Shown: positions 1 to 37,694 of the stretch, in pieces | Numbering within the stretch: position 1 is the first letter of the stretch | Layout: each line of letters starts with the position of its first letter | Origin: a phage | DNA: 64,000 nt | Sequence record: PX915678.1 | Direction: 5' to 3' (one strand) | The notes under the pieces: model-generated | The model's database searches: none | What the model was told of the DNA's origin: nothing | The model's input: the letters and a program-made list of their open reading frames with translations, nothing else | Position numbers and translations under genes: made by a program

Positions 1-102
1 GCTCCTAATATTTCTTCACCATTTTTAATCCATGAAATACGTTCCTGACCTTCGCCAGGAACGTATTTCATGGATTAAAAATGGTGAAGAAATATTAGGA
101 GC
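1..102. repeat. perfect 47-bp inverted repeat (arms 1-47 and 56-102, 8-nt spacer) at the window edge
   Basis: Reverse complement of 1-47 is identical to 56-102; the right arm is genuine wac coding sequence ([16 protein letters not shown]). Confidence 0.9.
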
Positions 103-1462
103 TAGTACTAAGTATGGAAACGATGGGTCAATGAATAGACCAACTGTTTCCGTGTTTAAAAACGTCGAGGTTCTCGACGAAAATGTAGGAATTCTTAAAA
201 CTGCCATTGAAACATCTCAGGAAGATATTAAAACTATTCAAGGCATTTTAGATGTATCAGGAGATATAGAAGCGCTATCACAGATCAGCGTTAATAAAAA
301 TGATATATCAAGTTTAAAGACGCTCACAAGTGAACATACTGATATATTAAATGGTACAAATACTACGGTTGATAATATTCTTTCTGATATTGGTCCATTT
401 AATTCGCAAGCAAATTCAGTTTATAGAACGATTAGAAATGATTTGCTGTGGATTAAAAGGGAACTAGGACAATATGCTGGACAAGATATTAATGGTCTTC
501 CTGTTGTAGGAAATAGCAGCACGGGGATGAAGCACCGTATCATTAATAATACAGATGCTATAACTTCCCAAGGAATACGTCTAAGTGATTTGGAAGAAAA
601 ATTTATTGAATCTGATGTAGGTTCGCTTACAATCGAAGTAGGAAATCTTAGACAGGAATTAGGACAAAGACCGCCTTCATTTAGTGAAAGTATATATTCA
701 CGTGTGCATAATTTAGATCAATCACAAATTAATCTTAATTCCGAAATTAAATCTATCAAAACTTCTATTGGATATCCAGGAAATACTTCAATAATCACAG
801 ATGTTAACACTAATACACGAGAAATTTCAGCTTTAACTGATGAGCTAAATAAAAGCGGAGGTGTTAAACAGCGATTAACTGTCATTGAAACATCAATTGG
901 CTCAGATGATATTCCTTCTAGTATTAAAGGTAAAATTAAAGATAATACAACATCTATTGAGTTTTTAAATGGAATTGTTGGTGAAAACACTTCATCTGGA
1001 CTACGAGCAAACGTTTCGTGGTTAAACCAAATTGTTGGAACTGATTCTAGCGGTGGACAACCTTCTCCTCCTGGGTCTCTTTTAAATAGAGTTTCAACAG
1101 TTGAAACTTCCGTTAATAGACTGAATAATGATGTTCAAAACTTGCAAGTTGAAATTGGTAATAACAATTCCGGAATTAAAGGACAGGTTGTAACATTAAA
1201 TAAATTAGTAAATGGAACAAATCCAAATGGTTCAACTGTCGAAGAACGTGGATTAACTAATTCAATAAAAGCTAATGAAACTAACATTTCTTCTATTAAT
1301 CAAGAAATGCGTAGTATTAAAAGTAATGTATCTTCATTACAGGCGGATGTTCAGACTTTACAGGAAGCAGGTTATATTCCTGAAGCTCCAAAAGATGGTC
1401 AAGCTTACGTTCGTAAAGACGGCGAATGGGTATTACTTTCTACCTTTTTATCACCAGCATAA
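32..1462 (+). CDS. wac: fibritin (whisker/neck fibre), 5' end unreliable
   Basis: 476-aa ORF ending in the foldon [27 protein letters not shown]; body matches T4 fibritin from [14 protein letters not shown] onward. First 10 codons lie inside a 47-bp inverted repeat at the window edge, so the true N-terminus is probably missing. Confidence 0.85.
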
Positions 1463-8386: not shown

Positions 8387-8402
8387 TACGGTGCATTCTA
8401 AA

Positions 8403-36846: not shown

Positions 36847-37301
36847 AGAGAGTCTCTTAATAGGTTTAACACATCAATAAATTCAGCTTCGGTTAGTATT
36901 GTATCATCTTTTGTTAGACCACTAGCCATGCTGTGCTTCAAAACTTTTCCTTTCGAGGCTTGTAATGCATCGCGAAAGCCCTTGTTTTGGAACGCTGCTT
37001 CAAAATATGCATTTGTGTATAATTCTTTCCACGCCGGGGAATATCTTGAAAACGGAGTTCCAAGCCAGAAGAGGGTCCCACGGTCCTGAGCTCTAGCATA
37101 AGACCTTCCAGCTTGTTGGGCGGCAAGCCCGGATAACCCAAATATACGACGTTGTTGTTCAACATTTTTCACCTTACACCCTTGGAGGAATCCTTCTAGA
37201 CCTCCAAATTGAATACCATCCATAACGAAAGGCCATTGGGCAAAATTACTTAATGCGCATGATGGCCATTTAAAATTGCTTCTTATCTCTAGCTCAGACA
37301 T
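36843..37301 (-). CDS. NADAR/YbiA-like (DUF1768-type) protein
   Basis: Track ORF starts at TTG (37307); ATG at 37301. The block LSNFAQWPFVMDGIQFGGLEGFLQGCK resembles the YbiA/NADAR signature (SNFA.WP...DG......E..FQ..K), from memory. Confidence 0.6.
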   Translation of the reverse strand: MSELEIRSNFKWPSCALSNFAQWPFVMDGIQFGGLEGFLQGCKVKNVEQQRRIFGLSGLAAQQAGRSYARAQDRGTLFWLGTPFSRYSPAWKELYTNAYFEAAFQNKGFRDALQASKGKVLKHSMASGLTKDDTILTEAEFIDVLNLLRDSL

Positions 37302-37500
37302 TTTCAATACTTATAATTTCAACATCAGCCCAATGACCATAGCAAGGAAGACGAAATTCAACTGGCCAGTTAGGGTCCTTTTCTAATATAATAGACTGAA
37401 CTTGTGGCTCTTCATATTCATCGGTATACGGACCTTTATACGTTACTTTATATGTGACTTTAATGTATTGAATTCCAAAAATCTTATTAATTATATTCAT
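37294..37500 (-). CDS. hypothetical protein
   Basis: 68-aa ORF, ATG start, in a head-to-tail overlapping array. Confidence 0.5.
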   Translation of the reverse strand: MNIINKIFGIQYIKVTYKVTYKGPYTDEYEEPQVQSIILEKDPNWPVEFRLPCYGHWADVEIISIENV

Positions 37501-37694
37501 ACTAATTCCTTTAATCCGTAAATAGGAGATAATTCATCACCCATACGAAGGTCTTCATTTCCATCTACCCAGGAAACAATATAAGCTTCTTTTATTTGAA
37601 TACCACTCCATTTAAATGGAGGTAGAACCTTAGAAATTAATCCAGGTATACCAACTCCCTTTAATTCAACAGTTTGACCTAAAAAGAATTTCAT
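37497..37694 (-). CDS. hypothetical protein
   Basis: 65-aa ORF, 4-nt overlaps both sides. Confidence 0.5.
   Translation of the reverse strand: MKFFLGQTVELKGVGIPGLISKVLPPFKWSGIQIKEAYIVSWVDGNEDLRMGDELSPIYGLKELV

Follow-up and report, generated by a model that had tools for sequence, protein, structure and literature searches.

Positions 1-55 of the window, the whole 64,000-nt stretch of phage DNA analysed here, probably represent an in-vitro fold-back (snap-back, hairpin-primed) chimera that was joined to the contig at this place or opened it, a reading to which we give a probability of roughly 0.85. The window is a Tequatrovirus (T4-like) segment running from wac, the fibritin gene, to the start of gene 37, and the palindrome with which it begins is almost certainly an artefact rather than a feature of the phage. 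An earlier note on this DNA had interpreted the hairpin at the window edge as a fold-back or chimeric artefact, and that interpretation gains support from three features of the sequence, namely a natural 8-bp repeat at the site, an inverted loop, and a junction that is absent from the records and contigs searched. The derivation of the palindrome from a natural mini-hairpin within wac is a new point that goes beyond the earlier note.

A perfect palindrome at the window edge

Recomputation reproduced the exact reverse complementarity between positions 1-47 and 56-102 that had been reported earlier, with arms of 47 nt, 100% complementarity and an 8-nt spacer (Table 1). As single-stranded DNA, 1-102 folds into a single perfect hairpin of -52.6 kcal/mol, compared with an average of -6.8 kcal/mol for shuffles of the same sequence (z = -21; 0 of 200 shuffles equally stable). 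Nucleotides 1-34 were found at 1-34 (+) and 69-102 (-) only, with 0 chance matches expected. A scan of the whole 64-kb window for local inverted repeats returned no other long perfect one, the runners-up being 20-38 nt long with 70-85% complementarity. The palindrome at 1-102 is genuinely present in the sequence, far beyond chance. Its arms lie 8 nt apart at one end of the window, not at opposite ends, and both are copies of one single-copy locus, of which relatives have the sequence once; the left arm matches these relatives on the minus strand only.

Table 1. Features at the start of the window (the artefactual status of the left arm and of the first Wac residues is almost certain)
Feature	Coordinates	Strand	Description
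Left arm	1..47	+	Reverse-complement copy of wac 56-102; almost certainly artefactual; 40-47 (CGTTCCTG) corresponds to the natural left stem too
Spacer ACCTTCGC	48..55	+	Natural 8-nt loop of wac, GCGAAGGT, inverted
Switch point	56..63	+	8-nt microhomology CAGGAACG, the natural right stem
Right arm	56..102	+	Authentic wac codons 18 to 33; identical to pSs-1 L001:2501-2547 and beyond
Chimeric wac (fibritin) ORF, 476 aa	32..1462	+	Residues 1-8 almost certainly artefactual, 9-476 authentic
Spurious ORF, 60 aa	25..207	-	Antisense to wac, through the palindrome; no separate explanation needed

The wac gene and its upstream neighbour in relatives

Over wac and gene 13, the window is 99.9% identical to the Shigella phages pSs-1, ESh16, ESh34 and KNP5 and to the Escherichia phages HY03 and KNP1, and the top matches listed all begin at window position 56. 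The claim that the true 5' end of wac has been replaced is thereby supported, relatives of 99.9% identity in wac aligning only from 56. In a few more distant relatives the alignment starts at 37 or 54 instead, owing to a loop that is partly the same as the inverted spacer. From 56 onward the window is colinear with its relatives in the comparison with the phage collection, which covered 1-25000 and 39001-64000, and identity to this collection is approximately 98.5% in the first 25 kb of the window and 97.5% in the last. The genome of pSs-1 is colinear with window 56-49447 except that one insert is missing from the window and one stretch diverges.

In pSs-1, gene 12 (tail collar/short tail fibre) ends 9 nt before wac, which encodes a protein of 485 aa, and window position 56 corresponds to codon 18 of this gene. 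Ten independent assemblies (ENA, Logan, NCBI) with an identical gp17, each of which extends at least 10 kb further upstream, show gene 12, followed by a wac of 485 or 487 aa and then gene 13. Comparison of the wac 5' end with that of relatives, which the earlier note had proposed, consistently placed gene 12 upstream of a full-length wac, and the normal gene 12-wac junction could be reconstructed from pSs-1 L001:2380-2500 and window 56 onward as ...GATAG/CGTTCCTGGCGAAGGT.

The right arm had been regarded as authentic fibritin coding sequence, and it matches pSs-1 from position 56 over 644 nt with 0 mismatches; residues 9-476 of the window Wac are identical to residues 18-485 of the pSs-1 protein, and the wac gene of the relatives is annotated as fibritin neck whisker, with PF07921 present. 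The left arm and spacer had been credited with the apparent start codon and the first 10 residues of the protein. The start is almost certainly false, but the residues supplied in this way number 8 (MKYVPDLR), since Q9 and E10 are the authentic Q18 and E19. Missing from the wac of the window are 17 authentic codons (MIELKELPFVDSVPGEG), or 51 nt, beginning with ATGATTGAATTAAAAGAG. The exact chimeric Wac protein has no match on record.

A natural mini-hairpin at the centre of the palindrome

At the homologous place, the authentic wac genes of pSs-1 and KNP1 contain a mini-hairpin, CGTTCCTG-GCGAAGGT-CAGGAACG, and the same stems enclose the loop ACGAAGGT instead in ESh36, T4_ev240 and RB14. The pattern CGTTCCTG-N8-CAGGAACG occurs at the homologous position in nine of the 15 related loci fetched (the natural site at L001:2485-2508 and its homologues in L002-L006, L009, L010 and L013; loop consensus RCGAAGGT), and the loci without it mostly have the 487-aa wac allele. 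The mini-hairpin is an 8-bp inverted repeat within wac codons 13-20 and is probably a by-product of the wac coding sequence. On the antisense strand around the site, the minimum-energy fold is the same hairpin with its 8-bp stem and 8-nt loop, at -8 kcal/mol.

The spacer, which the earlier note had treated as new sequence, turned out to be the opposite strand of the authentic 8-nt loop: the reverse complement of 48-55 is GCGAAGGT, the same as the loop in the closest relatives pSs-1 and KNP1. Because the spacer ACCTTCGC is the inverted natural loop, window 1-63 reads as the authentic wac antisense strand without interruption, and the palindrome centre consists of 8 nt of native sequence with the native 8-bp repeat on both sides. 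The window departs from the genome at position 64, where CTATCAACAAAA would be expected over 64-75 and TATTTCATGGAT is observed, the latter being the complement of the window's own 28-39.

The 24-mer at window 40-63 reads the same as the minus strand of the natural site in L001, L005, L010 and L013; this stem-loop-stem pattern matches the minus strand of relatives, so it does not discriminate the junction, and a junction-specific 36-mer, GAAATACGTTCCTGACCTTCGCCAGGAACGTATTTC, was formed from the 24-mer and six flanking bases on each side. It had 0 exact matches in IMG/VR contigs, GTDB species genomes and JGI metagenome contigs, E. coli genomes and plasmids gave no match at all, and the window did not find itself in the phage collection. 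All 504 phage records with a homologue of wac lack the palindrome itself (at least 80% of window 1-110).

Comparable natural hairpins are common in the window, which contains 36 perfect ones with a stem of at least 8 bp and a loop of 3-12 nt. The seed hairpin is one of these 36 and in no way special, as would be expected if chance had picked one site among many. As a separate observation, the 36 short perfect hairpins in window 111-64000 represent a mild excess over the 7-24 found in five mononucleotide shuffles, to which terminators probably contribute.

Proposed origin of the chimera

Judged from the sequence, the junction pattern is the product of a single intrastrand template switch. The natural 8-bp inverted repeat at the junction, together with the inverted loop, is the specific signature of hairpin-primed self-copying (PMC3946424, PMC10908179). 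In the route that we propose, a single antisense strand of wac would have ended, or been trimmed back, at ...CAGGAACG-3', and this 3' end would have paired with CGTTCCTG, located 8 nt upstream on the same strand, via the natural 8-bp inverted repeat. A polymerase, which could be the end-repair, amplification or PCR enzyme, would then have extended the 3' end with the strand's own 5' part as the template, and the product would run through antisense wac, the inverted loop and sense wac, the order of window 1-102. The genuine wac sequence in its right half overlaps the real genome and could have been joined on this basis, in place of gene 12 and the 51 nt with which wac begins. When self-priming of the 63-nt antisense strand of pSs-1 (opposite L001:2485-2547) was simulated, by pairing the 3'-terminal 8 nt with their internal complement and extending to the 5' end, 102 of 102 bases of the product were identical to window 1-102, with 0 differences.

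The event would have happened in vitro, and the fold-back molecules were presumably a minority. Position 1 is very probably the end of a contig, and the argument is strong on probability grounds, because a window boundary would fall by chance within 47 nt of the palindrome centre in only about 0.1% of cases (47/64000) and because the end of a contig is always where its first window begins. Chimeric molecules are as a rule scarce, and k-mer arithmetic offers a hint of how one may have reached the consensus: junction-unique k-mers start at 65-k, so that k = 64, or k = 63 in a graph with k+1-mer edges, puts the first of them at position 1. Another possibility is that position 1 is the 5' end of a 102-nt hairpin insert. 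The chimeric branch may have opened a circular assembly graph at this place.

Resemblance to known library artefacts

The fold-back proposed here closely resembles the hairpin-primed 'interrupted palindrome' artefacts of Illumina library preparation described by Star et al. 2014 (PMC3946424), in which a natural short reverse complement forms a single-stranded DNA hairpin, the 3' end is extended on the strand's own 5' part, and an authentic inner part is joined to an added arm that is its reverse complement. Those artefacts occurred in reads from degraded DNA, whereas ours is in an assembled consensus, at the probable start of a contig. Chimeric reads at natural inverted repeats, with the intervening sequence inverted relative to the reference, were also reported from sonicated and end-repaired libraries (PMC10908179, 2024). 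They share with our case a natural inverted repeat, 8 bp or longer, at the junction and an inverted inter-arm sequence; the model put forward for them differs in also permitting the pairing of two molecules, and our sequence fits intra- and inter-molecular pairing alike. Among the chimeras of multiple displacement amplification (MDA; Lasken and Stockwell 2007, PMC1855051), more than 85% are inverted and more than 70% of the junctions were primed on 2-21 nt of complementarity. The inverted junction and short complementarity are common to both, the 8 nt observed here lying within the range of 2-21 nt, but MDA chimeras usually have an intervening deletion, whereas here the parts lie 8 nt apart on a true hairpin. 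Ligation-based nanopore preparation also gives inverted-repeat chimeras (PMC13141652). A literature search brought up nothing specific on fold-backs at contig ends in phage assemblies.

Alternative explanations

The palindrome could be a purely computational mis-join, in which the assembler crossed the short inverted repeat to the opposite strand without any chimeric read. We consider this unlikely. Its location at position 1 would suit such an event, as would the k-mer arithmetic, which gives a start at position 1 for k = 64 (or 63 with k+1-mer edges), and de Bruijn graph assemblers are known to treat palindromic paths specially (bioRxiv 10.1101/2022.01.20.477068), which also speaks for a mis-join. 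However, the natural repeat is just 8 bp long and its 8-nt loop is non-palindromic, far under any usual k, and all k-mers across 55-64 must exist in the reads, as the graph cannot invent the inverted-loop junction.

Alternatively, the chimera could have been real DNA in the cell, a broken or replicating phage DNA end having primed itself on the short inverted repeat or a replisome having switched template within the strand, with hairpin-capped or inverted-dimer molecules then packaged or co-purified. The chemistry would be the same as in the in-vitro model, and the mini-hairpin and the simulation fit both equally. Template switching at short inverted repeats with inversion of the spacer is documented in vivo, and the quasipalindrome switches described in PMC8604942 and PMC7202029 are likewise intrastrand switches between short repeat arms that invert the spacer. 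In those accounts, however, the switch is followed by a return that leaves both flanks intact, whereas in the window no return is visible and the left flank is replaced. In addition, molecules that have lost the start of wac and the connection to gene 12, its immediate upstream neighbour in all relatives examined, would form a dead-end minority, and the junction occurs in no other assembly searched; the sequence does not require an origin in the cell, which we hold to be less probable still than a mis-join. A particular form of it, in which T4-type replication or recombination gave an intermediate whose single-stranded 3' end, at a break, primed itself on the 8-bp repeat, and the hairpin-capped or inverted-dimer product was abundant enough in the lysate to be assembled, is less probable again. 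If true, such a fold-back during infection would mean that snap-back synthesis in vivo had left its direct footprint in the sequence of a T-even phage.

A genuine genome rearrangement, in which the left arm continues past position 1 and an inverted duplication or two-switch mutation destroys the wac start, ranks below these and is highly improbable in our judgement. The window edge does cut the left arm, 47 bp being a formal lower bound for its length, and wac is dispensable as a matter of general T4 knowledge. Against this, a tile boundary would lie within about 50 nt of the palindrome centre by chance in only about 0.1% of cases, and the arrangement is seen in no relative (504 records, ten assemblies). 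Long perfect palindromes are moreover unstable in vivo, which also counts against a rearrangement.

A linear genome that ends here in a genuine, covalently closed hairpin telomere, as in N15, PY54 or Borrelia, can be practically dismissed as an explanation of the palindrome. Real hairpin telomeres (N15, Borrelia, Agrobacterium) do show in assemblies as contig ends where reads turn to the opposite strand (PMC13293297), and the sequence turns in the same way here. Such telomeres, however, need a protelomerase and a dedicated conserved site, whereas our site, in wac codons 13-20, belongs to a coding sequence that is uninterrupted in all relatives, which read through from gene 12; it is a short repeat of an ordinary kind, of which the window has 36. 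The annotation of the pSs-1 region that is colinear with window 1-49447 lists ordinary T4-type genes only, with no protelomerase among them; about 100 kb of the genome lies outside the window. The headful packaging of T4-type phages, with its circularly permuted, terminally redundant genomes, further counts against a telomere.

Three other candidates were rejected. Missed-adapter (SMRTbell) or template-complement read-through on long-read platforms does not suit a centre that is native and contains no adapter or non-genomic sequence; the terminal inverted repeats of protein-primed or transposon-like linear elements do not suit arms that are 8 nt apart at one end; and an intrinsic terminator or regulatory hairpin does not suit arms that are coding and a long stem that is absent from all relatives.

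Consequences for the record

As it stands, the record would carry a false wac start, with 8 wrong residues and 17 missing ones, and 55 misplaced bases, and users could mistake the interruption between gene 12 and wac for a genome terminus or for an N-terminal variant of Wac. The N-terminus of Wac anchors fibritin to the neck, and a false one could therefore mislead comparative or structural work. The main value of the fold-back reading lies in quality control: positions 1-55 are to be trimmed and the gene 12-wac junction restored. The case may also serve as a clean example of how an artefact can be diagnosed from sequence alone, through a short natural inverted repeat that relatives have at the palindrome centre and a loop that is inverted.

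Other observations on the segment

No tRNA genes were found by ARAGORN in the whole window (1-64000). Between gp18 (tail sheath) and gp19, at window 8387-8395, there is no ORF; at this place pSs-1 has an insert of about 650 bp that codes for a hypothetical protein of 205 aa (L016 8486-9103). An ORF of this kind, 201-212 aa long and with no match in Pfam, is found in some other assemblies but not in others (L007, L010 and L013); the gp18-gp19 ORF is a presence/absence polymorphism, and it is possibly a mobile ORF. Window 37353-37688 does not align with pSs-1, with 335 nt here versus 155 nt there, and is overlapped by two small minus-strand ORFs at 37294-37500 (68 aa) and 37497-37694 (65 aa). 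The record of Shigella phage KNP5 (KX452698.1/NC_055713.1) is 193,624 bp long, about 25 kb above the other complete Tequatrovirus records listed (about 165-171 kb), and its extra length may reflect redundancy or mis-assembly in that record.
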